DNA from: a phage
Length of the DNA stretch: 62,144 nucleotides
Sequence record: PX021331.1
Strand: one strand, 5' to 3'
In this document: one piece after another, positions 4,587-62,144 of the stretch
Position numbering within the stretch: the stretch's first letter is position 1
How the letters are laid out: every line of letters starts with the position of its first letter
The notes under the pieces: model-generated
Databases searched by the model: none
Seen by the model: the letters and a program-made list of their open reading frames with translations, nothing else
Told to the model about the DNA's origin: nothing
Program-made: the position numbers and the translations under genes

Positions 4587-4872
4587 TACCCGCGGATGGC
4601 TGCCTAGCCCGACTCTAATACTGCATTACGCCATGATTGCTTGTTTTCTGACAGCATTGAGTGGCGCATCAGTATACTATTTTCACGTGGAGAAGGCGAT
4701 GGCAGTCGTGGACGGTACTGCAAAACAGGTCGCAGGTATTGCAGAACGGTTGAAAGGGGAACTCCCTGACAGCCCGGAAGCAGAAGCTAAAGTCGTAAGA
4801 CTTCAAGTGAAGGCCGATCAATTGCAAAGTACCGCTCAGTCCGTAGCGCCAACGGTGCAAGCCGTCAACTGA
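4570..4872 (+). CDS. membrane-anchored protein (single N-terminal TM), lysis-associated by position
   Basis: 100 aa; TM segment LILHYAMIACFLTALSGASVYYF then helical soluble part; SD GGAG; overlaps end of holin candidate. Confidence 0.5.
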   Translation: MRNLRDTRGWLPSPTLILHYAMIACFLTALSGASVYYFHVEKAMAVVDGTAKQVAGIAERLKGELPDSPEAEAKVVRLQVKADQLQSTAQSVAPTVQAVN

Positions 4873-4878
4873 CCGCAA

Positions 4879-4910
4879 GCCCACCCATCTCATTCGGGGT
4901 GGGCTTTTTT
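4879..4910 (+). terminator. rho-independent terminator (stem GCCCACCC/GGGTGGGC, T6)
   Basis: 8-bp GC-rich inverted repeat followed by TTTTTTATT just after the stop at 4872. Confidence 0.65.
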
Positions 4911-5002
4911 ATTCCCTCCTGTATCAATCTACTTGCTTTAGCTTGCGTTTTGTGTATCCAGCACTTATATTCCTGTCATATGTGATATGGGGATACAGCG
5001 CA

Positions 5003-5554
5003 ATGGCCAACACACCTTTACCGTGGGATCGAAGCATCGAGTACGAGAATGATCTCACTCCAGACGAGATGATGCTGCGTGACGCTGTCGTTACGGAATA
5101 CCGCTTTGACCACAATTGGGTGAACGCTTGCAAACGTTTGGGCATGAACTCACAAATGGCTCACGAGTACGCCCAGCGATTCGCGTCTGATTCTTACGTC
5201 CAGAAACGTCTTAAAGACTTTGAACTTGCTGAAGCTGCGAAGCCTGAGGCTAACAAGAAAGCCGAGTTCGACCAGAAGAAGCAACGCATTATCGAGCAGC
5301 TCGAGGAACAAGCTGTTTACAACGGTCCAGGCGCGTCCCATGCTGCGCGTGTTGCTGCGCTCAAGCAGCTAGCAGTCATCTATGGCTTCGAAGCACCTAA
5401 GCAGACGAAGGTAGATGTGGGCGTGTCCAGCGGTGTGATGCTTGTTCCAATGACCAGCGATATGGGCTCATGGGAGCAGTCCGCCAAGGACGCACAGAAG
5501 AAACTTCAAGAGGATACGATGAATGGACTCGACATTGACCCGACCGTCCACTAA
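5003..5554 (+). CDS. terS: terminase small subunit (positional)
   Basis: 184-aa ORF (internal ATG of track ORF 4943..5554) directly upstream of and overlapping the large terminase; charged helical protein. Confidence 0.5.
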   Translation: MANTPLPWDRSIEYENDLTPDEMMLRDAVVTEYRFDHNWVNACKRLGMNSQMAHEYAQRFASDSYVQKRLKDFELAEAAKPEANKKAEFDQKKQRIIEQLEEQAVYNGPGASHAARVAALKQLAVIYGFEAPKQTKVDVGVSSGVMLVPMTSDMGSWEQSAKDAQKKLQEDTMNGLDIDPTVH

Positions 5555-7121
5555 GATCGTTTGGAAGCCACATCCAGGGTCACAGGTGCTGGCCCTGAGT
5601 TGCCCGGCTGACGAAATCCTCTATCACGGTACTCGTGGCCCTGGCAAGACTGACGCCCAGCTAATGCGTTTCCGCCGATACGTTGGTATGGGGTACGGGA
5701 AGCACTGGCGCGGCATTATCTTTGACCGCGAATATAAGAACTTGGATGACTTAGTAGCCAAATCCCAACGTTGGTTCCCTGAGTTTAACGATGGGTGTAA
5801 ATTCCTGTCATCCAAGTCAGATTATAAATGGGTATGGCCTACTGGCGAAGAGCTTATGTTCCGTGTTGCTAAGAAGCGCAAGGACTACTGGCTCTATCAC
5901 GGTCAGGAATTCCCGTTCATTGGCTGGAACGAATTAACCAAATACCCTGACGGTGATTTGTACGAAGCAATGAAGTCTTGTAACCGTACATCGTTCATCG
6001 CAGAAGAGAACCCAATCATTATTGACGGGGATATCTACCATGAGACGGGCCAGCTTGTACTGGTTCAACCGGACCACTATGCGGCGCAGAAGTTTATCCT
6101 TCCTGAGCTTCCATTGCAAATCTTTGCCACGACGAACCCCTTTGGTGTGGGCCACAACTGGGTCAAGAAATACTTCATTAACATGAGCCCGCTGGGCAGC
6201 ATGTATAAAGAGACAACGAACGTATTCAACCCACGAACGCAAAGTTATGTCGATGTTGTGCGCACGCGCTGCCACATCTTTGGGAGCTACCGCGAGAACC
6301 GCAACCTGACGCCAGAGTACGTCGCGCAACTGGTCAACATTGATGACCCGAACTTAAAGCTCGCCTGGTTGGGCGGGAGCTGGGACATTACTGCGGGCGG
6401 TATGTTTGATGACCTGTGGCGCAGAGCTGTACATGTGGTCACACCATTCCGTATCCCTGATAGCTGGAAGATAGATAGAACGTTCGACTGGGGCTCAAGT
6501 AAACCGTTCTCTGTAGGCTGGTGGGCACGCTCAGACGGGTCCGATGTCATCCTGGGTGACGGTACTCGAATGTCTACGGTGCGAGGTGACCTGTTCCGAA
6601 TCATGGAGTGGTACGGTACAAACGGGAAACCGAACGAAGGGCTGCGAATGTTGGATTCACAGATCACTCGTGGTATTATCCTGAAAGAACTTGAAGCGGG
6701 CATCTACGGCAGGGTTATGCCAGGGGCAGCGGATAATAGCATATGGGACGTCAAGGACGGTAACAGTACGGCAGCGACAATGGCGAAGCCTATTGAGATC
6801 AACGGAAAGAAATATCCTGGAGTCCAATGGAAGCGGTCTGACAAGACTGCTGGTTCCCGTAAAGCTGGCTGGAAGCGGATGCGTGAATACCTTGCTGCTC
6901 CGCTTCGTAAACCAGGCGACACAATCATTCGTGAGAAGCCTGGCATCTTTGTATTCGAAAACTGTACACACTTTATAGACCTTGTTCCATCGCTACCACG
7001 TGATGAGGAAGATCTGGATGACGTCGATACTGACGCTGAAGATCACATCGGTGACGAAACTCGTTATCGTGTTCTGGATGAAGCGCGTGGCGGTGGTACT
7101 GGTAAGACAACAGGCACATAA
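5523..7121 (+). CDS. terL: terminase large subunit
   Basis: 532 aa; Walker A-like GTRGPGKT near N-terminus, nuclease-sized C-terminal half; followed by portal. Confidence 0.85.
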   Translation: MDSTLTRPSTKIVWKPHPGSQVLALSCPADEILYHGTRGPGKTDAQLMRFRRYVGMGYGKHWRGIIFDREYKNLDDLVAKSQRWFPEFNDGCKFLSSKSDYKWVWPTGEELMFRVAKKRKDYWLYHGQEFPFIGWNELTKYPDGDLYEAMKSCNRTSFIAEENPIIIDGDIYHETGQLVLVQPDHYAAQKFILPELPLQIFATTNPFGVGHNWVKKYFINMSPLGSMYKETTNVFNPRTQSYVDVVRTRCHIFGSYRENRNLTPEYVAQLVNIDDPNLKLAWLGGSWDITAGGMFDDLWRRAVHVVTPFRIPDSWKIDRTFDWGSSKPFSVGWWARSDGSDVILGDGTRMSTVRGDLFRIMEWYGTNGKPNEGLRMLDSQITRGIILKELEAGIYGRVMPGAADNSIWDVKDGNSTAATMAKPIEINGKKYPGVQWKRSDKTAGSRKAGWKRMREYLAAPLRKPGDTIIREKPGIFVFENCTHFIDLVPSLPRDEEDLDDVDTDAEDHIGDETRYRVLDEARGGGTGKTTGT

Positions 7122-27900: not shown

Positions 27901-30010
27901 CGCGAACACCGCTATCCCGGCGCACGCGAACGCAGTTATTGACCAGAACAGCGGTATCGTAGACCCTACTTCACTGTCCATTAGCCCTATCAATAAGAAG
28001 GTCTACTATCGGGGTGTAACGCACCGACTGAACCTTATTATTACGCCTTCCATGCAGCAGGTAAAAGGGACGTGGAGCTTTACCCGCACCTCGGGCAGTG
28101 GCGCAGGCCCAATTCAGCTTAACGCCACCACAGGTGAGTTCACTGTCGTTGGGAGTGGAAACTTTAGCGTCAAGTTTGAAGGGACAGACACCAAAGGCGT
28201 GGCAGTAAGCGCGACGCAGACGGGCGGGGTTGCTAATGGTTATCAGGTGACCACAGTTAATCCGTCGGTCTACCCTGTCATTCCTGCTGGTGAAGCAACT
28301 TCCGTGAAGGTTAATCCTGGAGCTGAGTTCCTTGCGCAGCCTGGTCTCCGTATTGGGTTCAGCAGCAACGCACCTGATAGCAGAGCGACCGTTGATGGTA
28401 CGACTGGTGAGATCCTTACCCTGCCAGGTGGTACGTACCCGTCATCAGCTTACACTATCACGGTGAAGGTGTTCGCGTACCAGGATTTAATCTTTAGCGA
28501 GCAAGTTACTTTCCAGGTCGGGAAACCGCTTACAGGTCTTAATATTGCATGGCAACCGGCAGCGGACGCAACCTTTGACGGGAACACGTTAACAATGAAG
28601 TATCTGGAGGACTTTGCAAACTCACAGATTAACTTCGTTGTCACACCAGTGCCTAGCGATGCAGTGCGCGGAGACATTACAGTTACGTCCGCGGCACCAA
28701 CGAAGGCGAAGGTTGCAGCAAGTAGCCCAGCTGACTTTGGTGTCACGCCTGTTGCAGTGGACGTCACTGGTACAGTGTTCACGGTACGCGCGTTCAGCAA
28801 GGCTAAGACTATTACGGTCAAGACGCTGGAAGCGAGTCGCCCAACTGGCCCGGTTCCTGCTACCAGCATCCAGATCTACGAGGGTGAGACCATCAGTATG
28901 GACTACACTGGTGGGGGTGAGGACTACACCCTTCACGCGCAGGTGTTGCCTGTTGGTGCAACGGACACAAGCTATACGTGGAACTCGTCAGACACTACCG
29001 TCCTTGAAATTGCATTCGACGGTAAAGTAACGTTGAAGAAAGGTGGCACCGCTACCGTGACAGCAACGTCTACGGATGGAGGTTTCACTGACTCTATCGT
29101 TGTTACCGTTATTGACCGGACGCTCCCTGTTCCTGCGACTGGTGTTACTATAGACGAAGGTGCGTCTATTAGCTACAACTGGACTGGCGTTGCTGGTACT
29201 AACGTTCTTCATGCAACGGTTGCACCGTCCAACGCAGCTAATAAGGCGGTTACATGGTCGTCCAGCAATACATCGGTTCTGACTATCGACGCAACAACTG
29301 GCGCCGTAACCCTCGTTAAGTATGGGTCTGCGACGGTGACAGTAACTACCGCCGACGGTGGGTTTACGGACACTATTGCGGTGACGGTTGTAGACAAACG
29401 ACCTGTAACGGATGTCAGTACCGCGTCGAACTACGATTATGTCGTAGGTGGAACCAACATGCCAGCTCTGCCAATCCAGATCACACCGGCGGACGCGCAG
29501 GGTTACACCTTGGCTTACTCACTGGTCGACAGCGTGGGCGTGCCTACTACCATTGCGGGGATTACAATCAACGCCACTACAGGCGCAGTGACCATCGCAA
29601 GCGGTACAGCAGACAACAACTTCCGCGTGAAGGTACAGTTGACGGACAGCTCAGGTAATGTGGTCAGTGATTACAGCGAGGTTAAACTCTACAACCTCAG
29701 CATCACTACTGACACCATCCCGAACTCCCGTACACTGAAAGTCGGTCAAACTTATACGTTGGGCTTCACTTATGACAACGCGATTGACTTTAAATACGAC
29801 TTCGGCGGGGCTTCGATCAACGGGCCACAACCAACGTTGAGCTCTACAGCAGGTGGATCAGCTGCTAGCATGGTAACTATTAACGCTGACGGGTCTGTAA
29901 CTATCAAGTCAGACGCAACCGTCGGGACAGGTGGGAACCTTGGCAGAACGGTCACCTACTACGGGGCAACCGCGTCGGACACATCATCGTTTACGATAGT
30001 GGCGGCGTAG
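24947..30010 (+). CDS. large tail fibre protein with tandem Ig-like (Big_2-type) domains
   Basis: 1687 aa from ATG overlapping upstream stop (track start 24827 lies inside the upstream gene); large Trp/Tyr-rich N-terminal domain, then repeated Ig-like units (e.g. ...KKGGTATVTATSTDGGFTDSIVVTVID and ...KYGSATVTVTTADGGFTDTIAVTVVD). Confidence 0.7.
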   Translation: MNIQLLATRRSAITQAIALAYGHEDFLQRNTGLTIDAHVQHYLINPDGVLSNNRHFIADTMAEYQPNGDGTTEGQALLIIGHCHMYLATKDETFLNLAKQAWDAYINYFYAGQAIPTTPQRFICNWLVNSKEPVLANYPVNPTEPTQGGFKSVPLVFINGTAQIPHGAPFWGEYLDTATIAHRGHMTWEAINASVQKIKEDVDGLIDWNVVYNNWRITTGVTEPWNSQAWINWVGYLGDTYTPVWGGTDPKAKEYPVETIVAWTGNKIDPDSGDIIQSGLPEADKGKIVLRDKTINGVWLFNYATKNPVSAGGYLFARNEPWHNRPVHTPFMALKNNPPSYNQLGNAADAELWFIDACYLLWRITGETKYKRALDCCFYTAHEYTYIDSTDKYFRQSKAATTPFTDGISYDFTYPNTTLIEYGRDANGYITVAANAESQHFLEQQSVWFRVDQNAKLRTVYGGLGNAGALVGCKVMLDVSATKTEVTNPTWYGISLPKSSSMTPVQRDVSITSLALMTNPITNDDYLVADARAATDYGGCVWVEAFESGVNGDREGTIIKATFPNEDAGFIIGFWLTQDELVNPVSITYRADAQFNMRVTDDNLWRWYWMLPATNGQWATVSVSKASATLSGYQPDHPTDPAPSAPAYSRLTQITIVQDGNVANAHFDYYCVNDIPPLFNISNGWTMTYRMMLNSSEPWKAVVGDCTIIDYRLDSLAYTPGTIPFSNIYSEGSDQIGAWHGMPYPGYQYPFMYTIHKHPENYAWWFQNQIDFMFESQAAYASKVGQLGPGCAAYIWNRWDNYKYGKADTWVNYHWGDGHPWAGYQPRAYNAAARAWYELKVRGQAVPVRLQQYVENWAVWLVDFARRYPGKTPNDFPSGDVPAVWVADDFTAHMCALWLAGSAFALMAGCEVEGLEQLCEYAVKELSEGYTVTSTPGAGINGAWSPAAREGTDNGMAFGFYTGEIYRGLGMYMMYKEFGPGYNIYANTAIPAHANAVIDQNSGIVDPTSLSISPINKKVYYRGVTHRLNLIITPSMQQVKGTWSFTRTSGSGAGPIQLNATTGEFTVVGSGNFSVKFEGTDTKGVAVSATQTGGVANGYQVTTVNPSVYPVIPAGEATSVKVNPGAEFLAQPGLRIGFSSNAPDSRATVDGTTGEILTLPGGTYPSSAYTITVKVFAYQDLIFSEQVTFQVGKPLTGLNIAWQPAADATFDGNTLTMKYLEDFANSQINFVVTPVPSDAVRGDITVTSAAPTKAKVAASSPADFGVTPVAVDVTGTVFTVRAFSKAKTITVKTLEASRPTGPVPATSIQIYEGETISMDYTGGGEDYTLHAQVLPVGATDTSYTWNSSDTTVLEIAFDGKVTLKKGGTATVTATSTDGGFTDSIVVTVIDRTLPVPATGVTIDEGASISYNWTGVAGTNVLHATVAPSNAANKAVTWSSSNTSVLTIDATTGAVTLVKYGSATVTVTTADGGFTDTIAVTVVDKRPVTDVSTASNYDYVVGGTNMPALPIQITPADAQGYTLAYSLVDSVGVPTTIAGITINATTGAVTIASGTADNNFRVKVQLTDSSGNVVSDYSEVKLYNLSITTDTIPNSRTLKVGQTYTLGFTYDNAIDFKYDFGGASINGPQPTLSSTAGGSAASMVTINADGSVTIKSDATVGTGGNLGRTVTYYGATASDTSSFTIVAA
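28853..29400 (+). repeat. tandem duplicated Ig-like coding unit (~270 nt x 2, diverged) inside the fibre gene
   Basis: Two adjacent ~90-aa units with the same pattern (VPATxxxIxEGxxIS...TW(N/S)SS(D/N)T(T/S)VL(E/T)I...GGFTD(S/T)I(V/A)VTV(I/V)D). Confidence 0.5.
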
Positions 30011-37437: not shown

Positions 37438-38853
37438 TTAGTCATTCAGATAATTAATTACTTCTGCTGCGTTATTAATACTAAACGCAGTCTTACGCAT
37501 CATGCAAGGGCCGCACGTACCGCAATGCAGATCGCCGTTCTTGTAACAGCTCCACGTATGGGCCAACGGTGCTCCCTGCTCGAGCCCCAGGGCCACGATC
37601 TCGTGCTTCATTAAGTTACCCACGGGCATGAGCACCCGCACGCGCTTGCCGTCGCCTACAGCGAACGGTAATATCGCATTAAAGCGGTTAACGAACTCGG
37701 GTTCGTTATCGGGGTAGGCGCCCGCTTCTTCCAGGTTGTTACCCAGCACGATATAATCAAACCCTTTCGCTTCTGCGTAGGCAGTGGCGACAGACAGCAT
37801 AACAAGGTTACGAGCAGGAACCCACTCATGAGCGAACTCCGCACCGGCTTCACCTCCGGCGATGGTGGAATTGTGGTCAAAGAGGGGACTATCTGTTGGA
37901 TCGTAAATGGGAATCGGGAAAAGGACAAGCGGCACCCCCATCTCTTCAGAGATTTCTTTAATCGCTTTCAGCTCGTGCTCTTCAGCACGGCAACCATATT
38001 GGAAGTTAATCAGAGTGACGTCCATACCCTGATTCTTACACACCTGCGCGGCAACGGTGCTATCCAGCCCACCACTGGCGACGACCAGTGCGCGAGGTGC
38101 GCGGGCTTCACCGTGACTAAAAAGGCTGACGCGATGGTTGCTGGAGCTGTACTTGTCGATCAGTTGACAGGTGTAAGGCTCTTGCATGTAAGGAACGCAG
38201 TTATGCGGAAGCATACTGCGCTCACTTGCTAACCACATACCTGAGTCGTTCTTACCAATCCAGATCGGACGGTAGTTGCACGCAGTGAAGATCACACCTT
38301 TAAAGGATTCATGCGTCGCCAGGATTGCGTAGCTACCTTTCAGCTCTTCAATAACACCGATAAAGATCCCGTAGGCTTCGTCCAGTGTGCGGATACCGTC
38401 TTCCGGTTCGCGCTTGGCTAACATCTCAACGATCGCAGAGCTATCAATAGCCGTTTCCAGTTTATTGGTGCGCAGCTCTTTATCATTGGCGATAGTACCG
38501 TTATGCACGATTGCCCACTTGCCCATGACATACGGTTGCTGATCGTACCCGTGTTTTTCTTTCACCCATTCGGTAGTCGGTTCAGCGCGGGCATTACCGA
38601 TCATTGTGAGCTCTTCACGGTGGATGGTTGCGTGCGTAACGATGTCGTTAATGGTTTCGTTATGCAGGTAAGAACCAGCTTTTTCCGTTGTCATGCACTG
38701 ATATGACACGTAAGGCGCTGGCAGATGGGTGATACGCGCACCAATACCATCGCGTCCGCGGTTGACAGCGTTGCGAACCATGTCGTCAACCATAACACGC
38801 AGGCGTTCTTTATCTACAACGCCGTTAGTAACAAATCCGAAGATTGAACACAT
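37438..38853 (-). CDS. queC: glutamine amidotransferase-QueC fusion (Gat-QueC)
   Basis: 471 aa; N-terminal MCSIFG (class II Ntn glutaminase, Cys2), central PP-loop ALVVASGGLDSTV, C-terminal zinc cluster CYKNGDLHCGTCGPC as in QueC. Confidence 0.8.
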   Translation of the reverse strand: MCSIFGFVTNGVVDKERLRVMVDDMVRNAVNRGRDGIGARITHLPAPYVSYQCMTTEKAGSYLHNETINDIVTHATIHREELTMIGNARAEPTTEWVKEKHGYDQQPYVMGKWAIVHNGTIANDKELRTNKLETAIDSSAIVEMLAKREPEDGIRTLDEAYGIFIGVIEELKGSYAILATHESFKGVIFTACNYRPIWIGKNDSGMWLASERSMLPHNCVPYMQEPYTCQLIDKYSSSNHRVSLFSHGEARAPRALVVASGGLDSTVAAQVCKNQGMDVTLINFQYGCRAEEHELKAIKEISEEMGVPLVLFPIPIYDPTDSPLFDHNSTIAGGEAGAEFAHEWVPARNLVMLSVATAYAEAKGFDYIVLGNNLEEAGAYPDNEPEFVNRFNAILPFAVGDGKRVRVLMPVGNLMKHEIVALGLEQGAPLAHTWSCYKNGDLHCGTCGPCMMRKTAFSINNAAEVINYLND

Positions 38854-52543: not shown

Positions 52544-52568
52544 AAAAAGGGCCCAGCGGGCCCTTTTT
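52544..52568. terminator. bidirectional rho-independent terminator (stem GGGCCC/GGGCCC, A5 and T5 flanks)
   Basis: AAAAAGGGCCCAGCGGGCCCTTTTT between the plus-strand acidic gene and the minus-strand primase-helicase stop. Confidence 0.7.
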
Positions 52569-55108
52569 CATGAGTTTTCAAGGAGTTCGTTGACCTTGTC
52601 TATTGCTACAAGGTAAGCAGCACCCCTGAAAGGTTTGTGCTCATCGTCACAATAAGGCGGTTGACTTAACTCCGCACTCCCCATAGGTTTCAACGCGCCG
52701 AGGCTACATAGTGCCCTCAGTGTATCGTCAAACGCCTTCACGTTGTCCTTAGTTGCACGGAACGCGGAAAGGTTGACCGTGTTTGTACGGATATCGCTAT
52801 ACGTATATACAAAGTTATCCGTAAGAAGTTTATATCGTTTCTGATCTCTTCCACTGCGTTTTTCAAACAAAGTGTTAATCTTGGCCAGAACGAGTTTCTC
52901 ACGTTTCACGCCATCGATACCAATTTGCCCTTCCTTGTGCTTTTTGATAATACGTTCGTTACTGGTATTAATGAACGTGGATGCCCATTCAAAGTGCTTC
53001 ATAGTCACTTCAGGGTTGTAGCAGTTATCCGCAACCGCCAACAGACATGCAATCTTTAATGTCTTAAACGCGCGACGGCTATGCGCTTGTCGAATAACTT
53101 CATCCTTCTCTTCGTTACCGTCTACACCATTTAACAGCGCATTAATTTCTACGTCAAGGCTGTCATACCAGTCCATTGCATCCGGCTGCATACGTACGAT
53201 GCAAGGTGCTGTCCCTGCGTGCAGCTTAACAGCCTGCGTGATTAACTCGCCCAGCCCACGCAATAAAGGCTCAGGCATTTGCTGGTTCGCGTTCTTGTTC
53301 TCCAGTGGCCGCTGTACACTACAATCCCAAATAGTAAGGCGCGACACAAAACCGCTTGACAGCATGTCTTCTGTCATTGTCGAATAAAAATCATCCGGTG
53401 TACATTCACCCGCGAAACTGTAAGCAGCAACGCGCCCACCAGCGTGGTTATTCTCTTTGTTGGAATACTTAAAACCATCCGCACGAGAATAGAAGTCACT
53501 GAGGTTGTACATCATCAACATCGCGTGTGCAATCTCAGGGGCCTTACCGTATCCAGTTGCAAGACCTTTAAATAACTTACTCACTTCATCCATGTAGTGA
53601 ATAAAGGATAAGCGTTCCATAGACCCATCTGGTACAGTTACGGACTTCATTAATGCTTGCTCGGAACCATAACTAGCAGTATCGATAAAACTACCAGCAC
53701 CGAACAACTGAGTACCGTCTTTCCCACCAAACATTTCAACAGTTCTTAACACTTTCTGAATGTTAGAACGGAACGCGTCTTTACCCAGCCCGGATCGTGC
53801 AACAAGAACAAAGTAATTGTTTAGGCCGCCATTGGTATGGGTGTTCCACGCTTTACCACATATACCGCTCAGGAGTGACAGCGCAGACAGTATTGCAATG
53901 TCCTTCACCGGACGCAAGCTAATGCTGAACATGTAACGTGCAAGCTCACCAGCAGCACCAGGCGGCCAGTCTAGCCCACCGTCGTCCTCGATTGTATAGT
54001 TACCGTCAGTGGCTAAGAATTCGCTCGGTGCTGGAGCAGGTAGCGACGCTTCATACTGCTTTGCTTTCATCTCTAACGTGCGTTGGATGTTAGCCTTCAT
54101 AATGGCTTCACGTTCCATGTTGGACACTTGCTCGTCCATACGGCGACGTTTAATCATACGGTCTAAATGGTAGGGCTTCTTGATCTTGTCGTCATGCTTG
54201 CGACGGTCATCAAAGTAGCGGTCACCCATCTTAGACATATAGAACATACGTCTAACCTGGAAATTATACTTCGTATAGAATGCCAGGATGTCCACCAGCG
54301 CGAACTCTGCTTCCGACTGCGACGGGAACCCGCGCTCACCTAATGTGTAGTTGACATCCGCTACATCAAAGCGCCCATCCCATAGCTGACGGAATAACGC
54401 ACCGTTTGCAGCTTCGCACGCTTTTACATACAGGTCTTCATCGCGTAGGGAATACGGGTCATTCTCATATTCCTCTTCGGTAAGTTCCACCATGTCAAAG
54501 GATTCAAGCAACGACACACCGTTCATCTGGCTGCGCATGTTGTACAGCAGCTCCGCGATGTATGCTTCGCTTTCGTGCCCAGGCGCACCGGACAGCGTTA
54601 AAGGGGAAATATCCCAATGCTGACCAGTACAAATCATAAACCGGTATTGTGTGTAGATTTCAACCCCGTCGCGACGCTTGCCTTCTTGTGGTAAAGCGTA
54701 GATCCACAAGTGCAGACCGTTACCGCTACGGGAAACTTCAGTATAACTATGGAAGGATTTTACTATCTGCTCGTAACGAGCACCAGCTTTCTGAATTGTT
54801 TCAGCATCCCACTCCTGTTTGATATCCATATCAATACAGCAGAACGGGTCAGACGGCATAAGGTAGAACCCCGCCATTAACGTGTGCCCGTTCATATTAT
54901 AATATTTGATGCACTGCTGGACGCTGTCAAAGTCCATAAGCAGATGCAAGTTGGAAGGATGCTTATCGTTGCCGTCTTTACGAAGTGGAACCATGTTACC
55001 AACTTCATTATCCCAGACATACGGTTGTTTTTCGGAAGACCCGTTATTCTTAAATCCGCAGACGGCCCACTGTGGCACATCTTTTATCGCTTGCGGGAAC
55101 TTGTCCAT
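52568..55108 (-). CDS. primase-helicase (AEP prim-pol domain + SF3-type helicase)
   Basis: 846 aa; AEP-like motifs CCIDMDIK (DxD) and SRSGNGLHLWIYA (SGxGxH); central Walker A VLVARSGLGKD. Confidence 0.75.
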   Translation of the reverse strand: MDKFPQAIKDVPQWAVCGFKNNGSSEKQPYVWDNEVGNMVPLRKDGNDKHPSNLHLLMDFDSVQQCIKYYNMNGHTLMAGFYLMPSDPFCCIDMDIKQEWDAETIQKAGARYEQIVKSFHSYTEVSRSGNGLHLWIYALPQEGKRRDGVEIYTQYRFMICTGQHWDISPLTLSGAPGHESEAYIAELLYNMRSQMNGVSLLESFDMVELTEEEYENDPYSLRDEDLYVKACEAANGALFRQLWDGRFDVADVNYTLGERGFPSQSEAEFALVDILAFYTKYNFQVRRMFYMSKMGDRYFDDRRKHDDKIKKPYHLDRMIKRRRMDEQVSNMEREAIMKANIQRTLEMKAKQYEASLPAPAPSEFLATDGNYTIEDDGGLDWPPGAAGELARYMFSISLRPVKDIAILSALSLLSGICGKAWNTHTNGGLNNYFVLVARSGLGKDAFRSNIQKVLRTVEMFGGKDGTQLFGAGSFIDTASYGSEQALMKSVTVPDGSMERLSFIHYMDEVSKLFKGLATGYGKAPEIAHAMLMMYNLSDFYSRADGFKYSNKENNHAGGRVAAYSFAGECTPDDFYSTMTEDMLSSGFVSRLTIWDCSVQRPLENKNANQQMPEPLLRGLGELITQAVKLHAGTAPCIVRMQPDAMDWYDSLDVEINALLNGVDGNEEKDEVIRQAHSRRAFKTLKIACLLAVADNCYNPEVTMKHFEWASTFINTSNERIIKKHKEGQIGIDGVKREKLVLAKINTLFEKRSGRDQKRYKLLTDNFVYTYSDIRTNTVNLSAFRATKDNVKAFDDTLRALCSLGALKPMGSAELSQPPYCDDEHKPFRGAAYLVAIDKVNELLENS

Positions 55109-55949: not shown

Positions 55950-56369
55950 TTAGAACTCCTTGAGCTGGATGTAAGCGTCAAGAGTGAGTACGTAGTGACC
56001 GATCAGCCATTCGTACTCCGCCACCTCGTTGCACTGGTTGCCCTTGGCGAGGGTCACATGTGGTTTAAAGTCGTAGCCCGTATAGGTAAGGCCCAGGCGG
56101 TCGTACACGTGACGCGCTTCGGCCCAGTCGCGCGGGTTAAGCACTGCAACGGTAACGTCCGCGCCTTCCCAATACTCGATTGACATTACAGGCGAGCGTG
56201 ACGGTAACGGGCCAGTAAGCGAATCACACGGAATGTAAGTCGTACCAGCAGCGTCCAGGAATGCCATAGTCACGTGCAGCTTGCTTTGATCAAAGCCAAT
56301 CAAGTCCAGTACAGACGGGCAATCGTCGAACGCTACGCGAACGCCCACAATCATTTTCAGTTTAGACAT
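55950..56369 (-). CDS. 2H phosphoesterase superfamily protein (two H-x-T motifs)
   Basis: 139 aa from internal ATG with AAGGA upstream (track ORF extends to 56447); KLHVTMAF at residues 30-37 and KPHVTLAK at 102-109, 72 aa apart. Confidence 0.55.
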   Translation of the reverse strand: MSKLKMIVGVRVAFDDCPSVLDLIGFDQSKLHVTMAFLDAAGTTYIPCDSLTGPLPSRSPVMSIEYWEGADVTVAVLNPRDWAEARHVYDRLGLTYTGYDFKPHVTLAKGNQCNEVAEYEWLIGHYVLTLDAYIQLKEF

Positions 56370-56712
56370 CTTCTTTGTCCTTCTGATGGAACGTTGGTTC
56401 CATGGTGTAAGTATAGCGACCGTTCGGTGTTGCTGTACGGTTGCCAATGATTGCTACAATACGTTCCAGTTCTTGAAGTTTAGGAAGGATTTCCCTTGCA
56501 GAGCTATACTTCTTATCTTCAATTGCGGACTGGAGCTCTTCGATTGTCTTATCACGATAGTCACAAAGAGCACAGAAAAGAACGCCGGAATCCACTGTAA
56601 TTGTGTCTTCCTTTTTGTATGGCCCGTGGAACGGGTCGTACAACATAGTGCCGCCAAAAGGCGGTTCGCTAAACACGGGTTGATTAAACGCGTCAGGAAT
56701 TTTGTCAGCCAT
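56362..56712 (-). CDS. hypothetical protein
   Basis: 116 aa from internal ATG with GGAG upstream. Confidence 0.5.
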   Translation of the reverse strand: MADKIPDAFNQPVFSEPPFGGTMLYDPFHGPYKKEDTITVDSGVLFCALCDYRDKTIEELQSAIEDKKYSSAREILPKLQELERIVAIIGNRTATPNGRYTYTMEPTFHQKDKEDV

Positions 56713-57718: not shown

Positions 57719-57904
57719 TTACACCCCGTAAACACAATAGATGATTGCATCACGCAGAGACTTGTGATACATGGTGCAAGCGTACCATCCTTCAGGTTTC
57801 TTCTTGATGGTAAGAGTTTGCTTACCTCTTTGAATCACGTAGTAGCAGTGATTCGCGATGTCCCGCTTAACAATATACGGGACTTGACGGAAGCGCTTCT
57901 GCAT
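57719..57904 (-). CDS. hypothetical small protein
   Basis: 61-aa ORF, basic. Confidence 0.4.
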   Translation of the reverse strand: MQKRFRQVPYIVKRDIANHCYYVIQRGKQTLTIKKKPEGWYACTMYHKSLRDAIIYCVYGV

Positions 57905-58215
57905 TATTTGTGCCCTTTAAGTTTAGCAACGATTGCATCCAGCTTCTCATTGTTGTTGACACCCAGCACCTCGCCCAGGAAGTGCAGCTCCAGGAGCATC
58001 TCTGCCATCTCCGCAGCGCACTCAATAGCGCGAAGGTTAGCAGCCAGCTCCGCCTCTTTAGCGACACGCTTGCTGTCCTGCGTTGTGTAGTCGCCGTCCA
58101 TCTTAACCAGCACGTGAGCGATAGCACCATGCAGCGGAGCGTCGATGCTAGCGTGGTTGGTGTAGAACGATTCGCCCGACTTCCACGGGCCTTTAGTGCC
58201 TTTGAAGAATTGCAT
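57904..58215 (-). CDS. hypothetical protein
   Basis: 103 aa from internal ATG with GAGGAG upstream. Confidence 0.5.
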   Translation of the reverse strand: MQFFKGTKGPWKSGESFYTNHASIDAPLHGAIAHVLVKMDGDYTTQDSKRVAKEAELAANLRAIECAAEMAEMLLELHFLGEVLGVNNNEKLDAIVAKLKGHK

Positions 58216-58266
58216 ATTGTTACTCCTCTGTTGAACTAAATACATAGTACAACGTTCGGACTTGAT

Positions 58267-58740
58267 TTACAACTGGTTCCCGTTCGTGTCGAACACACGA
58301 TTGCCCACGGTTGTGATTACATACATGTTCTCGTCGTGCGGCCCTTGCTGGTACGCAACGATAAGCATATCGCCGCCCGTTTGCTTATCCTTCACTTTCC
58401 ACGGATCACATTGCACATACCTCATCTTGATGCAGTGCGACTGAAGCGACACGCCTGTATTTTTAAGGCACTTGCTGACAATACCACTCTGCGAAACCGT
58501 ATACCGTCCCGTGTCCAAGTCGACACGATGCGTGGCCTTGTTTTGAACGAACCAGTTCGGTTTGACGACATACCCAGCAGCGACCAGCCGCGCCACGATG
58601 CCCACCGTATAGCGGTCTCGGCCCTGACGCATGTTACGCGGAGCGTCAGCCAACACCTCCTCGAACTTGAGCGCCACCGCTTCGTTGCGTGGATCCACAC
58701 CGAACATATCATACAGCTGAACATTGTTTATAACTGTCAT
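58267..58740 (-). CDS. hypothetical protein (first gene after the iteron region)
   Basis: 157 aa from internal ATG with GAGGAG upstream; a TATAAT hexamer lies ~40 nt upstream on the minus strand. Confidence 0.55.
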   Translation of the reverse strand: MTVINNVQLYDMFGVDPRNEAVALKFEEVLADAPRNMRQGRDRYTVGIVARLVAAGYVVKPNWFVQNKATHRVDLDTGRYTVSQSGIVSKCLKNTGVSLQSHCIKMRYVQCDPWKVKDKQTGGDMLIVAYQQGPHDENMYVITTVGNRVFDTNGNQL

Positions 58741-58897
58741 ACGACTCTCCTCGCCGGCCGCCGCAATAGAGGTGACCACATTATAAGGTTGTGCAGTGTG
58801 GTCAGCCTACCGAGCCTCACCCATACTCCACGCCTGTTGAGATTTGCAAATGGGATTTTAACAGTTTTTATAAACGGATTTAAATTTGATTGTTTGT

Positions 58898-59156
58898 AAA
58901 CTGCGATCACTAGACGATTCGCAGTTTTGCATTTGGCGGTATGCTGATCGCAGTTTTTGCAATGATCGCAGTTTGCTGATCGCAGTTTGCTAGTTTTTGC
59001 ATTTCTTGCATTGCGTTGCATTTTATGAACGAAATGCAGGTTTGGGAACCGCGAATCCCGCGGCTGGTGCGGGTTTTAGCGCGATGCCACCTCAGGCAAT
59101 GCGTGGCTATGGTACGTTAACCTCTAAAATCTTAAACCGCGATCAGATCGCAGTTT
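58898..59156. repeat. iteron cluster: 11-mer GATCGCAGTTT (4 direct perfect, 1 inverted perfect, 1 imperfect) plus TTGCAT repeats
   Basis: Copies at ~58946, 58964, 58978, 59146 (direct), 58898 (inverted, AAACTGCGATC), 58917 (GATTCGCAGTTT); TTGCAT repeated at least 5 times at 58926-59024; each 11-mer contains a GATC. Confidence 0.6.
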
Positions 59157-59157
59157 C

Positions 59158-59300
59158 ATTAAAAACATAAAAAAATAAAATACAAACAATACAACTACTT
59201 ACTAACTACTACTTTTACCTTTATTTTCAAGCACTTACAGCACTAATTTTTTGCATTTCATCAAAGAAATACAAGCAAAATACACCAATGCAAGAATTTT
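59158..59300. other. AT-rich tract next to the iterons (possible DNA unwinding element)
   Basis: ~140 nt dominated by A/T (ATTAAAAACATAAAAAAATAAAATACAAACAATACAACTACTTACTAACTACTAC...). Confidence 0.45.
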
Positions 59301-59308
59301 GACATGTC

Positions 59309-59350
59309 CGCGCGTGCATGGATGCGCGTAGCGCCTGCGTGCGTGTGCGC
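59309..59350. other. GC-rich alternating purine-pyrimidine tracts (Z-DNA-prone)
   Basis: CGCGCGTGCATG and TGCGTGCGTGTGCGC are strictly alternating Py/Pu runs of 12 and 15 nt. Confidence 0.35.
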
Positions 59351-59414
59351 CCGCGTTATTAGCACAAAAATTGCAGCCTGTAAACGATTCTTTTTCGGAT
59401 AGCGTTTCGGTGTA

Positions 59415-59623
59415 GCGAAATGGATTTTTGTGGAGGCAAAACGATTCTATTTTGGAGTGAAAATCGGAAAACGGTTCGGGAAAACGCCGTTTATCAGCGT
59501 TTGCCAGGGCTAAAAGGGTCGCAAAGGTGGGCGAAAATCGCGAAAATAGGCCGGGTTTTCGGGGTGTACAGGCCGCGCTGTAGGCTCGCCAGTAGGGTAG
59601 CCAGGGTATGGGGGTGAAAATCG
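59415..59623. repeat. array of ~8 short A-tract motifs G(N)GAAAA(T)CG
   Basis: GCGAAATGG, GGCAAAACG, GTGAAAATCGG, GGAAAACGG, GGGAAAACG, GCGAAAATCG, GCGAAAATAGG, GTGAAAATCG over ~210 nt; consistent with bent DNA or a protein-binding array. Confidence 0.45.
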
Positions 59624-59792
59624 CTTAAACTCGCGCATATTGGCCCACCAGCGGGGTCGCTGTAAGCCGATATAAGCCGGCGTTATTTGGGTCTGTATAT
59701 TAGTATAGAGTGAAGGTTGGGCGTGTTATAGGGCGATACAGCGAGGATTTACCGTGGTCAAGCTGGTGCGGTAGGTGTTTTGCGGGTGCTAT

Positions 59793-59826
59793 AAACGATA
59801 AAAACCCGTTGGATATCAACGGGTTA
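59793..59826 (-). terminator. rho-independent terminator of the right-end early unit (stem AACCCGTTG/CAACGGGTT)
   Basis: 9-bp stem with GATATC loop followed on the minus strand by TTTTATCG, 25-50 nt after the stop at 59849. Confidence 0.55.
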
Positions 59827-59848
59827 TGGGGTGTATAATGCAGTTGAA

Positions 59849-60094
59849 CTATTTAACTGCTAACAATACCGCAATGGTACTATCAGGAAGCGTACCAGTT
59901 CCCAGCAGCTTAAAGTGGCGCGTGTTTGCGCTGTTGTAGCGGTCGAGCAGCTCTTGCGCAGCGTATGCAGCGTTGCCCTCATCGGTGAGAGCATGGTCTT
60001 GCCCGGTAATAACACACAGGTCGAGACCCATAGCTTTAAAGCGAGTACCCTTGCGTTCGGAGGGTGCAAGTTTCTTCACGTGGATAGCTTTCAT
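59849..60094 (-). CDS. hypothetical protein
   Basis: 81 aa from internal ATG with GGAGGG upstream. Confidence 0.5.
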   Translation of the reverse strand: MKAIHVKKLAPSERKGTRFKAMGLDLCVITGQDHALTDEGNAAYAAQELLDRYNSANTRHFKLLGTGTLPDSTIAVLLAVK

Positions 60095-60375
60095 TGCTGA
60101 CCCTCCGCCCAGCGCTTGCAATTCTTTAGCAGGCTAATGAAACCCACCAGCGTCGAAGCGCTTACAGCGAGGCGGCCGAAGGTCCAAAGTTCAGCATGGA
60201 CGCGACCGTTCTCGTAGATGTATAAATATACATTATAGTCGGCGCAGCGAACACGGTACTTCCGGAACATGTTACCGAAAGTTTCCACTTCGGCGGTAAT
60301 GGTGGCACCGAGCTTGAACATACGCTTGCCGATAATGCGACGGGTAATGATTGACTGGCTAACGATTGCAGACAT
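60091..60375 (-). CDS. hypothetical protein
   Basis: 94 aa from internal ATG with AAGGAA upstream. Confidence 0.5.
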   Translation of the reverse strand: MSAIVSQSIITRRIIGKRMFKLGATITAEVETFGNMFRKYRVRCADYNVYLYIYENGRVHAELWTFGRLAVSASTLVGFISLLKNCKRWAEGQQ

Positions 60376-60443
60376 AATTAGTTCCTTTGTTAAGTATGCG
60401 GAGTGCATATTATTGCCCACAGTGACTATGGGCAATGTATATG

Positions 60444-60920
60444 TCACTCAGCGTGCTCGAGCAGGTAGATAACCTTTTCGAATGCTTTACGCGCCTCGAT
60501 TAGGGTAGCAACGCAGTCACCGTCGGTTGTAAAGTTTTCGTCGGTCGCTTTCGCCCACGCTAACAGTTCACCGGCGGAAAGCTGTTGGAACACGGTGTAG
60601 AACTGGTCTGGTGTATCGGCAGCTTCTTCGAGCTCCGGAGGGTTGTACCCGTCAACTGTTACACCGTAGTCGAACATGCGCTGGCAGAAGCGCTCGACAA
60701 GTGTGGTCAACGGAAATTCGTCTTTCACGCTCGGCTGTACTGTTAAGGTATACACGCCCGAAATGCTGTCTTGCTGAATGTTAACAGTCTTGAACGTTGC
60801 GTAAACAAACTGGTCACGGAAAAATTCGTGAATGGTAATGTCCGCATTGTAGTTCTCCGCGTGTGCGATAGCCAGGTTGCGGAAAGCAGAGGTCAGTTTC
60901 AGAGTCAGAATAGTTTTCAT
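60444..60920 (-). CDS. hypothetical protein
   Basis: 158 aa from internal ATG with AAGGTG upstream; acidic. Confidence 0.55.
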   Translation of the reverse strand: MKTILTLKLTSAFRNLAIAHAENYNADITIHEFFRDQFVYATFKTVNIQQDSISGVYTLTVQPSVKDEFPLTTLVERFCQRMFDYGVTVDGYNPPELEEAADTPDQFYTVFQQLSAGELLAWAKATDENFTTDGDCVATLIEARKAFEKVIYLLEHAE

Positions 60921-60998: not shown

Positions 60999-61487
60999 TC
61001 ATTTGTTGTAACCGTGGAATTTGCGCCAGCCGTAGAACTCGATGGTAGCGTTGTTAATGTTCCAACCGTGTGATTCAGCGAGCGCTTTCACTTCGGTAAT
61101 GGTAATCGGCGCATCGGTTTCGCTAGCTTCCTGAACTGCTGTCAGGGTGGCCCAAACTTCTGCGCATTTACCTTTAATTGGTTTGCGCACACCGTTGCGA
61201 ACTTCGGAACGCGCTTTGCTTGCTTTTGGTTCTGCTGGTGCTGGTGCTGCGGCAGGTGCTGGAACCGCAACGGTAGCAACTTTGTCAGCTTCGATAGACG
61301 GGTTAGCAGCGCGGTTAACAGCAGCTTCGGAGAACCAGTAGCGGCCACCATCTTCCAGCGCTTCCATGTTAATAAGGGAATTTGCAACTTCGGTAGAGCA
61401 GTTGAAAACCTTTTTCAGAGCGCGACGCGCGTTAGACATGTTGGTGAAGAATTTAGCGTCTTTAGTTGGTTTGATTACAGTAGTCAT
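60999..61487 (-). CDS. hypothetical protein (first gene of the minus-strand arm)
   Basis: 162 aa; SD AAGGGG; Ala/Pro-rich linker (VAVPAPAAAPAPAEP) between two small domains. Confidence 0.6.
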   Translation of the reverse strand: MTTVIKPTKDAKFFTNMSNARRALKKVFNCSTEVANSLINMEALEDGGRYWFSEAAVNRAANPSIEADKVATVAVPAPAAAPAPAEPKASKARSEVRNGVRKPIKGKCAEVWATLTAVQEASETDAPITITEVKALAESHGWNINNATIEFYGWRKFHGYNK

Positions 61488-62144
61488 TTTAGAACCCCTT
61501 ATTTGGTTTGGGCTCCAGCGGTTGCTGGTCTACCCTGCTTTGCTGCGTTACTACATACTACACTTTTATAATAGCATTTCTAGACATAAACACAATCTAG
61601 ATATTGTAAAGTTCTGTAAAGATAGAATGCGCTTACTAGTGCTCGGGGTCTGCTGCGTGCGGTGTGCTGGTGGACCCCTGCTGGGGTGTAGGGTGCATGT
61701 ATAGGTAACGGGTGCGCGCGGATAGCACATCTATCTATACATAGCAACTACTAATAAAAGAATTCTTGTGCAAAAAGTGCGAAATAGAGATCGGCGCAGA
61801 TCTATGCTAGCGTACAGGGTAGAGGGTAAAACCGCCTACAGGGGCATACAGGGGCCTATAGGCAGGGTGTATGTATATACAGGAACATGCAACAATCATA
61901 CCAATGTGTAGATGCACTATAGTAGTGCATACATGTACACATATCTATACAGACAAAGAACAACAAACAATCTAATCAATGTGCGTAACAGTTAGTGTGC
62001 TAATGTATAGACAAGCACTCAGTCACATGAAGTGACTATCACCTCACCGATCATCACCGATGCAGCTGATAAATCGCCCGGGCGGGCCTTTGAATCGCAT
62101 CTCCGCTTCGTCGTTACAAGATTGTCTTGCCACTAGACACTTTG
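61488..62144. promoter_or_regulatory. divergent non-coding control region (continues into 1-111 if the genome is circular or permuted)
   Basis: ~650 nt with no convincing ORF, between the leftward gene at 61487 and the rightward gene at 112; perfect palindromes TGCACTATAGTAGTGCA and TGTATATACA, inverted repeat AGTCAC-N5-GTGACT, two TCTAGA sites 12 nt apart, repeated TACAGGG and TGTATA(G/C) motifs, TATAAT-like hexamers on both strands. Confidence 0.35.

Follow-up and report, generated by a model that had tools for sequence, protein, structure and literature searches.

Introduction

Iteron-type origins of replication are exemplified by lambda ori with its O protein and by the Rep-iteron replicons of the plasmids pSC101, F and P1 (oriR). 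A gene, a promoter, an inverted copy of a repeat, direct copies and an AT tract make up the layout of iteron replicons and of lambda ori alike, and a lytic-phage precedent is found at T4 oriE, where repEB lies next to 12-nt iterons. The subject of the present study is a non-coding region (58741-59848) of the phage genome PX021331.1, which was analysed over its full 62,144 bp and is called the window hereafter. As in iteron origins, short direct repeats and an inverted copy are found there beside a fast-evolving gene that would set specificity (gene A), together with an adjacent, strand-asymmetric AT tract of minimal stability and with bent DNA, and repeat and protein change together among related phages. 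Unlike in iteron origins, no homology of gene A to O, Rep or RepEB could be detected, DnaA boxes are lacking and the spacing of the repeats is irregular. Moreover, lambda ori is located inside O, whereas the candidate origin described here lies outside its putative initiator gene, exactly at the predicted boundary of a terminal repeat.

Other described systems to which the region can be compared are concerned with the ends of phage DNA. The pac site of P1 consists of clusters of TGATCA/G hexamers which flank the terminase cut and are Dam-regulated. Similarly, the repeats of the window carry TGATCG, and the predicted boundary has a cluster of them on one side and a pair on the other. This resemblance fails, however, because GATC is not conserved: it is lost in most repeat copies of the relatives L016 and L019, and the repeats do not follow the small terminase. 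With the primary origin of T7 and with phiOL and phiOR, the region has in common an AT-rich unwinding region at the junction of early and replication genes, as well as origin-like elements linked to terminal-repeat processing. T7 origins, in contrast, use phage promoters and have no iterons, and neither a phage RNA polymerase nor a matching promoter was found here. Finally, Repeat Region 3 of T5 is an untranslated stretch of 1.2 kb, rich in repeats, which lies behind the pre-early genes and extends across the inner end of the terminal repeat (bioRxiv 10.1101/866236). The region of the window is likewise untranslated, rich in repeats and palindromes, bent, about 1.1-1.2 kb long and located, here by homology to phages HdSG1 and HdK1, at an inner repeat boundary. 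As in T5, the terminal repeat would carry the first operon of small early genes, and homing-endonuclease genes are found nearby in some relatives. The T5 region, a candidate injection stop signal, has paired DnaA boxes and is highly conserved in its group, whereas the present one has no DnaA boxes, a lineage-specific left part and a predicted repeat of 3 kb instead of 10 kb.

We propose that this region is an iteron-type origin module read by the product of gene A and placed at the terminal-repeat junction. The proposal, which is based on sequence comparison, is tentative and has in our view slightly less than an even chance of being correct. An earlier note on this DNA, made from the sequence alone, had already suggested a replication origin. 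That suggestion is borne out in part, by genuine if indirect evidence: the iterons co-vary with gene A, the AT tract is the stability minimum of the genome and the minimum of the GC skew falls within it. In contrast, the primase-helicase named in the note is not the iteron reader, and the GATC sites are not conserved.

Interest in the Queuovirinae, the subfamily to which the phage belongs, stems from their 7-deazaguanine DNA and from their potential use in therapy. No description of their replication origin or of their end-forming mechanism was found in the searchable literature. Here, one compact region would join an iteron/orphan-protein pair, of which close relatives have three types or more, the best unwinding element of the genome and a terminal-repeat boundary. 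If confirmed, it would give a new initiator family, explain how related phages keep their replication specificities apart and provide a small model for the definition of long direct terminal repeats, a question open even for T5.

A Conserved Non-coding Region in the Early Genes

PX021331.1 looks like a complete phage genome, and its source is a new species of the Queuovirinae (9g-like phages), consistent with a Gat-QueC gene at 37438-38853. The closest deposited relatives, at about 80% nucleotide identity, are the Klebsiella phages vB_Kpn2-P2 (Kpn2-P2) and vB_Kpn_K9PH25C2 (K9PH25C2, L001) and Escherichia phage Ec1-ASingh; remoter ones are Nonagvirus phages such as 9g, JenP1 (L012), JenP2, JenK1, HdSG1, HdK1 and SE1. 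K9PH25C2 and the Nonagvirus phages are classified in the Queuovirinae, and the records of Kpn2-P2 and Ec1-ASingh give no subfamily. Closer relatives, designated by L numbers (e.g., L016-L020), were taken from public assemblies, some of them metagenomic. Late genes, including portal and tail genes, are on the plus strand from about 112 to 30,010, with the small and large terminase genes at 4943-7121. Early genes are on the minus strand from 30,966 to about 61,500.

Within the early genes, the non-coding span extends from the start of gene A to the stop of gene J (59849-60096), both on the minus strand. The earlier note had placed the gap at 58780-59850, and the gene-free region is real even though its true limits are 58741-59848. 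Its view that no credible open reading frame (ORF) lies there is confirmed by close relatives, in which the small ORFs of the gap are disrupted by indels that are not multiples of three. A scan for tRNA and tmRNA gave no match. A gap of about 1.0-1.25 kb is present at the same position in K9PH25C2, Kpn2-P2, 9g, HdSG1, HdK1, SE1, BRET and several metagenomic relatives, and in the unannotated record of Ec1-ASingh the homologous stretch is also devoid of long minus-strand ORFs.

Read from left to right, the gap starts with the leader of gene A and its promoter-like site, followed by short repeats that are lineage-specific, a GC block and an AT-rich tract. A second GC block, which contains the alternating runs, leads to a G-rich module (about 450 bp) in which conserved islands are found, and the terminator of the upstream early operon comes last. 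The gap is a real, conserved, multi-part and presumably cis-acting DNA hub with putative functions. It is best seen as a composite of promoter, iterons, unwinding tract, curved DNA and terminator at what would be a terminal-repeat junction.

The Repeats and Gene A

The repeats were counted correctly in the earlier note: four perfect direct copies of GATCGCAGTTT start at 58946, 58964, 58978 and 59146, and a perfect inverted copy at 58898. An inverted copy with one mismatch, at 59134, forms a palindrome with the copy at 59146. Elsewhere in the 62 kb, a single further match is found at one mismatch or less, and seven matches were reached in none of 100 shuffles. Degenerate copies are GATTCGCAGTTT at 58916 and AACCGCGAATC at 59047. 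Iteron arrays can be recognised by three or more occurrences of a repeat unit of 10-22 bp, in excess of chance, within a brief non-coding interval, and five perfect and three degenerate copies are found here. The array, with the consensus TGATCGCAGTTT, occupies 58898-58988 (inverted copy at 58898-58908, variant at 58916-58927, direct copies at 58946-58956, 58964-58974 and 58978-58988). The palindromic pair AAACCGCGATC-A-GATCGCAGTTT (59134-59156), which adjoins the AT tract, has a DNA hairpin z-score of -2.9.

Gene A (58267-58740, minus strand) is the first gene of the delayed-early unit. It has a GAGGAG ribosome-binding site and encodes an orphan protein of 157 aa, the candidate reader of the iterons. 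It matches neither a Pfam nor a PHROG family, and searches of plasmids and of deposited phages returned no relatives. The family is tiny, with only three relatives among 5.8 billion proteins and five cluster representatives among 1.84 billion, profile search included.

Repeats and gene A were compared across lineages. In L017 and L018, where A is 94% identical to that of the window, the repeats are unchanged (GATCGCAGTTT). In L016 and L019, where A is 76% identical, all repeat copies have changed together, including the palindromic pair, to (G/A)AT(T)CGCGA(A)TTT (AATCGCGATT type), and the flanking TTGCAT block, GC block and AT tract remain 95-100% identical. L020, with an A protein 51% identical, has a third repeat type. 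In the Klebsiella group, the counterpart of A at the same position (A') is barely recognisable, with only the motif LVxxGYxVxPN in common, and the repeats are TAGCTGGCTATA and CTG(T/C)AG(T/C)AG, the latter flanking the AT tract in inverted orientation. Repeats of this latter type, TGCAGCAG versus TGTAGTAG, follow two A' variants within the group. Nonagvirus phages have TTGCAAT and TTTATAAAGR repeats and yet another gene version at the position of A; like L007 and L027, they carry TCG(C/T)CAGTAGACA in place of the palindromic iteron pair. Judging from this pattern, the repeats appear to behave like protein-binding sites that co-evolve with gene A.

The idea that a Dam GATC site is an integral part of the repeat had to be abandoned. 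Repeats of L016 and L019 are mostly AATCGCGATT or GATTCGCGA, without GATC, and the six GATC sites in 300 bp are no enrichment, being matched elsewhere in the genome. Dam/GATC regulation was rejected, GATC being neither enriched nor conserved. DNA of 9g resists MboI, and therefore the GATC sites are probably modified (PMC4276943).

Other proteins were considered as iteron readers. The arrangement of iterons and an AT element upstream of a primase-helicase, on which the earlier note relied, is present, but 3.6 kb and nine small genes separate the gap from the primase-helicase gene (52568-55108), the product of which has an NrS-1-like primase domain, a helix bundle and DUF3987. The C-terminal 125 aa or so of this protein (52568-52945, minus strand) are 36-58% identical to Kpn2-P2, against 80-95% for most of the rest. 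This tail looks like a variable specificity domain, the partner of which is not the iterons. It was rejected as iteron reader because it is near-identical in L016, with three differences in 125 residues, and the iterons of L016 differ from those of the window. The small terminase was also rejected, being about 98% identical (by eye, from an alignment) between L016-type and L007-type phages with unrelated repeats. The recognition sites of the NrS-1 primase (GTG, TTTGGTTA) are too short to be informative.

Co-variation of repeats with an adjacent gene is also what would be expected of an autoregulator. This raises the possibility that the repeats are operators for a protein encoded by either gene A or the first early operon, and that replication starts elsewhere. 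Once bound, this protein would act as activator or repressor of the delayed-early promoter beyond the terminator (59803-59825), with the AT tract and the curved DNA as a promoter-upstream architecture. A consensus scan indeed predicts a sigma-70-type promoter of gene A at 58855-58884 on the minus strand (TTTAAA-18-TAAAAT, with a preceding TG), 14 nt from the first (inverted) repeat, and both hexamers are retained in close relatives. In addition, the leader of gene A contains a palindrome, TGACCACA-N16-TGTGGTCA (58773-58804, arms at 58773-58780 and 58797-58804), which is conserved in the window clade and in the Klebsiella group though gene A has diverged beyond recognition. This palindrome lies outside the predicted minimum-energy fold of the RNA, and can be viewed as a DNA element. 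The gap also divides the terminated immediate-early operon from the genes of replication proteins, and a small TetR-like regulator is reported by the authors of 9g in the homologous early operon. It should, however, be noted that the seven or eight sites are spread over 260 bp, that none of them is on the core promoter, and that a further pair is found 250 bp off, beside the AT tract. We regard a transcriptional switch alone as somewhat unlikely.

Between the array and the palindromic pair lies a cluster of TTGCAT motifs (TTTTTGCATTTCTTGCATTGCGTTGCATTTTATGAACGAAATGCAGG, 58993-59040), identical in five members of the clade despite the varying iterons that flank it. The repetition of TTGCAT seen earlier is well founded: six of its 51 genome copies lie within 58927-59293, when about 0.3 would be expected at the genome-wide rate (own arithmetic). 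Nonagvirus phages have a TTGCAAT cluster at the equivalent position. A function of TTGCAT as a -35 element was discarded, as no matching -10 element at the proper spacing could be found by eye. The cluster is followed by a GC-rich block (59044-59076) containing CCGCGG and the degenerate inverted iteron (59047-59057), and a related block exists in the Klebsiella group.

The AT Tract and Strand Composition

The candidate DNA-unwinding element is an AT-rich tract at 59157-59300 (66 A, 43 T, 28 C and 7 G). The AT richness reported earlier is clear, with 25% GC over 59152-59301. This segment is the least stable duplex of all 62 kb at 50, 100 and 150 nt, about 4.8 standard deviations from the mean at 150 nt, and the stability minimum adjoins the iteron pair, as is required of an unwinding element. 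The tract is more than 90% conserved in the clade, and TTTTACCTT.(T/C)TTTTCA.GCACTTAC is common to Nonagvirus. An operator array would leave this conserved 145-bp genome stability minimum unexplained.

Over the whole window, the cumulative GC skew is lowest at 59,286, a position within the AT tract, and peaks at 29,451, nearly on the opposite side of the genome. Because the point of transcription divergence lies near 61.7-62.1 kb, about 2.5 kb to the right of the skew minimum, the switch is not simply one of gene orientation. In the eleven phages compared, the skew ranges from -0.05 to -0.19 in the minus-strand genes to the left of the gap, from +0.23 to +0.40 in the module between, and from -0.04 to +0.07 in the minus-strand operon to the right. 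A strand-composition switch of the kind sought at an iteron origin is therefore found, with the skew minimum in the AT tract and the shift in all lineages. The pattern is correlative and fits an origin at the gap, where the effects of replication and transcription would add on the left and cancel on the right. A purely transcriptional role of the repeats, in turn, leaves a skew minimum within the AT tract unexplained.

The Terminal-Repeat Boundary

Exact direct terminal repeats of 3,363 and 3,367 bp are present in the deposited HdSG1 and HdK1 genomes, respectively. Their left (inner) boundaries fall within the homologous gap, at a distance of about 295 bp from the start of the counterpart of A, on a copy of the repeated TTTATAAAGG motif and about 40 nt to the left of the AT tract. 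Their right boundary, between ...GGCGGCTC and TTAGATC, is the same base as the physical end of 9g, which was mapped from read starts (PMC4276943). The unique parts of the two genomes differ by about 460 bp, their repeats have the same length and their boundaries are homologous. The same repeat length despite this difference implies that the boundary is set by sequence and not by a headful mechanism.

In the window, the boundary was placed by alignment of the HdSG1 and HdK1 boundaries via the Klebsiella group (TTAAAGGGGTATCTCG). The predicted repeat would have its inner boundary at about 59,105-59,145, its right end at about 62,088 and a length of about 3 kb. The inner (left) boundary would be held by a conserved block, GCAATGCGTGGCTATGG..TAACCTC..AAATCTTAAA (59095-59145). 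We consider it more probable than not that the region contains a repeat boundary. If so, the iteron array, the TTGCAT cluster and the first GC block would be just outside the repeat, and the iteron pair, the AT tract, the second GC block, the curved module, the terminator and the first early operon would be inside it. The AT tract would begin about 40 bp from the left end of virion DNA, and the right half of the region would correspond to the first 700 bp or so of virion DNA, inside the terminal repeat. Directly before the predicted right end, a GC-rich palindrome (CGCCCGGGCG, 62075-62089) corresponds to the GCCGCGGGGCGGC hairpin that precedes the mapped end in 9g, HdSG1 and HdK1.

Another motif found near both boundaries in relatives is CASTAGAC. 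It occurs three times in the 62 kb, always on the plus strand, at 17-24, 62131-62138 and 58908-58915. The first two copies adjoin the predicted right repeat end. The third (CACTAGAC) lies inside the iteron array, and the chance of one plus-strand site in the gap is about 0.03 by our own estimate. In Nonagvirus, CASTAGAC is found 28-43 nt to the right of both repeat boundaries, and in Nonagvirus, L007 and L027 a copy precedes the AT tract, to the right of the left boundary or of the position predicted to correspond to it; the window has none beside the AT tract. The motif is possibly a shared recognition site, all its copies being in the two non-coding regions that hold repeat boundaries in relatives.

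The earlier note had mentioned a packaging site as an alternative. It was partly right, in that the inner repeat boundary of HdSG1 and HdK1 is in the homologous gap; the repeats, on the other hand, do not follow the small terminase. By analogy with Repeat Region 3 of T5, it can be proposed that the region is an end-formation site and that the origin lies elsewhere. Its elements would then serve mainly to define and process the inner repeat boundary, being recognised by terminase or a nuclease and used to duplicate the repeat, and DNA entry might perhaps pause there. Several observations agree with this explanation. The left boundaries of HdSG1 and HdK1 are homologous, inside the gap, on a TTTATAAAGG copy and sequence-set, CASTAGAC lies near both Nonagvirus boundaries and the predicted right end here, and curved DNA is present. 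Terminase binding sites, for example SPP1 pacL and lambda cosB, are characteristically curved. Further agreement comes from the right boundary, equal to the mapped end of 9g to the base (PMC4276943), and from the comparable 1.2-kb region at the inner repeat end of T5 (bioRxiv 10.1101/866236). However, the iterons specific to each lineage do not go with the small terminase, T5-style DnaA boxes are missing, the window clade has no CASTAGAC at the Nonagvirus position and the boundary of the window is predicted by homology alone. As the sole role of the region, end formation appears unlikely, although, together with the operator array, it is the chief competitor of the origin. It should be noted that the origin, operator and end-formation readings are compatible with one another.

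Two other sources of information on termini were set aside. Three metagenomic contigs stop at the equivalent of position 59336 of the window; these ends were not used because their likeliest cause is assembly breaks at a block common to co-occurring strains. Phage iggy has a terminal repeat of 1,091 bp, in a layout too different for transfer.

A Proposed Mechanism and Its Weaknesses

The individual features and their conservation were observed directly or by comparison, and so were the co-variation between iterons and A, the signals in base composition and the position of the repeat boundary in relatives. From these observations we infer every step of a mechanism for the iteron-type origin, which would occupy the left and central parts of the region. 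The product of gene A would be made from the promoter at 58855-58884. It would bind the TGATCGCAGTTT repeats, both in the array at 58898-58988 and in the palindromic pair at 59134-59156. The bound and bent DNA would then open the adjoining 145-bp AT-rich tract, the easiest-melting DNA in the genome, where the NrS-1-like primase-helicase and the polymerase of the phage could be loaded without host DnaA.

A further possibility, which we hold to be improbable, is that the origin is located at the inner repeat edge for a purpose. Initiation there would copy the 3-kb repeat, regenerate it in concatemers and couple the start of replication to the formation of virion ends. If this were true, long exact terminal repeats would be made by a new route, under the control of an orphan initiator family, that of gene A. 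DNA entry might, in addition, be halted temporarily at this junction, behind a T5-like pre-early operon.

Several points weigh against an iteron-type origin. The searches described above revealed no similarity of gene A to any known initiator or DNA-binding family, and its AlphaFold model (pLDDT 56) is too poor for classification, and the Foldseek matches are meaningless. The co-variation of iterons and A is confounded by lineage divergence, because other early proteins (I, J, K and L) differ too. The iteron spacings of 14, 18 and 29 bp show no helical phasing, and L027 has no obvious multi-copy iteron. The region contains no DnaA box (TTWTNCACA) and no IHF site apart from a consensus match inside the terminator hairpin; phage origins with their own helicase loader can do without DnaA and IHF sites. 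As to composition, the G-rich curved module itself supplies part of the skew signal, and the divergent early/late region, in which low-stability AT-rich tracts also occur, is a possible alternative location of the origin. Finally, end formation could be the main job of the region, because the repeat boundary of the relatives falls between the iterons and the AT tract.

The Right Module, Terminator and Other Signals

To the right of the AT tract, the conserved GC block (59305-59366) contains the two alternating purine/pyrimidine runs recognised earlier, CGCGCGTGCATG (59309-59320, 12 nt) and TGCGTGCGTGTGCGC (59336-59350, 15 nt). The latter, with 73% GC, is the longest alternating run among those listed with a GC fraction above 0.6. 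The block hardly varies within the clade and L007 and can still be recognised in the Klebsiella group, SE1 and HdK1. Its DNA hairpin z-score of +1.1 is nothing special, and neither the DNA nor the RNA folds of the GC block and of the gene A leader are better than those of shuffles.

Next to the block is a G-rich, intrinsically curved segment (59380-59640) with A-tracts phased at 10.5 bp and repeated GAAAAY(C/A)G, the invariant core of which is GGATTTTTGTGGAG.AAAACGATTCTATTTT (59422-59453). The phasing noted earlier is pronounced: the 10.5-bp periodicity of AAA words over 59380-59640 is the strongest in the genome, all windows of higher or similar score overlapping the region. Of about eight GAAAA(T)CG motifs claimed, the clustering is upheld and the number is not, exact GAAAAYSG being found four times. 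These four, all on the plus strand, are among seven copies in the genome.

The right module is also a place of insertions. Genes of HNH homing endonucleases follow the equivalent of 59446-59453 in L008, L016 and L019, and one is present in the right module of JenP1 (L012 3250-3723). The insertions replace part of the module, and in L008 the replaced DNA still shows A-tract phasing. Phages of the Klebsiella group have at the equivalent of about 59455 an extra tandem array of some eight units of 14-15 bp (GCTAAC.ATTAG), located at about 4830-4960 in K9PH25C2 (L001) and also present in L010 and L011.

The intrinsic terminator of the upstream, terminal-repeat early operon is found at 59803-59825 on the minus strand (RNA fold z-score -3.3). 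Its stem shows compensatory changes between lineages and in Nonagvirus. Between the stop codon of gene J and this terminator lies the near-invariant TGTATAATGC (59832-59841, plus strand), which reads as a plus-strand promoter (TGGATA-18-TATAAT) antisense to the early operon.

A nucleotide identity of about 77% to the Klebsiella phages over 59310-59850, which is like that of coding regions, and an alignment that folds better than its column shuffles could indicate that the right half of the gap encodes a structured non-coding RNA. However, an Rfam scan of 58000-60500 gave no significant match, the sole one being rne5 with 15 bits for a gathering score of 180. Consensus folding of the right module on both strands left the terminator as the sole supported helix, the others being short and without convincing compensatory changes. 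The segment, moreover, tolerates the insertion of a 100-nt tandem array and of homing-endonuclease genes, and its conserved islands resemble protein sites and A-tracts. A structured RNA is thus highly improbable.

In the early/late divergent region (61400-62144), repeated ATGTATA(T/G)ACA motifs and several AT tracts of low stability were observed, with no match to a sigma-70-type promoter. These motifs hint at non-canonical early promoters.

Neighbouring Genes

A protein of 61 aa encoded at 57719-57904 on the minus strand matches Pfam N4_GP8 (E = 8.5e-22), the phage N4 inhibitor of host DNA replication; its gene is a neighbour of gene A in relatives as well. Further away, the ORF at 55950-56447 (minus strand) has two H-x-T motifs (HVTMAF and HVTLAK), which suggests a 2H phosphoesterase, and its homologue in Kpn2-P2 is annotated as an RNA ligase.

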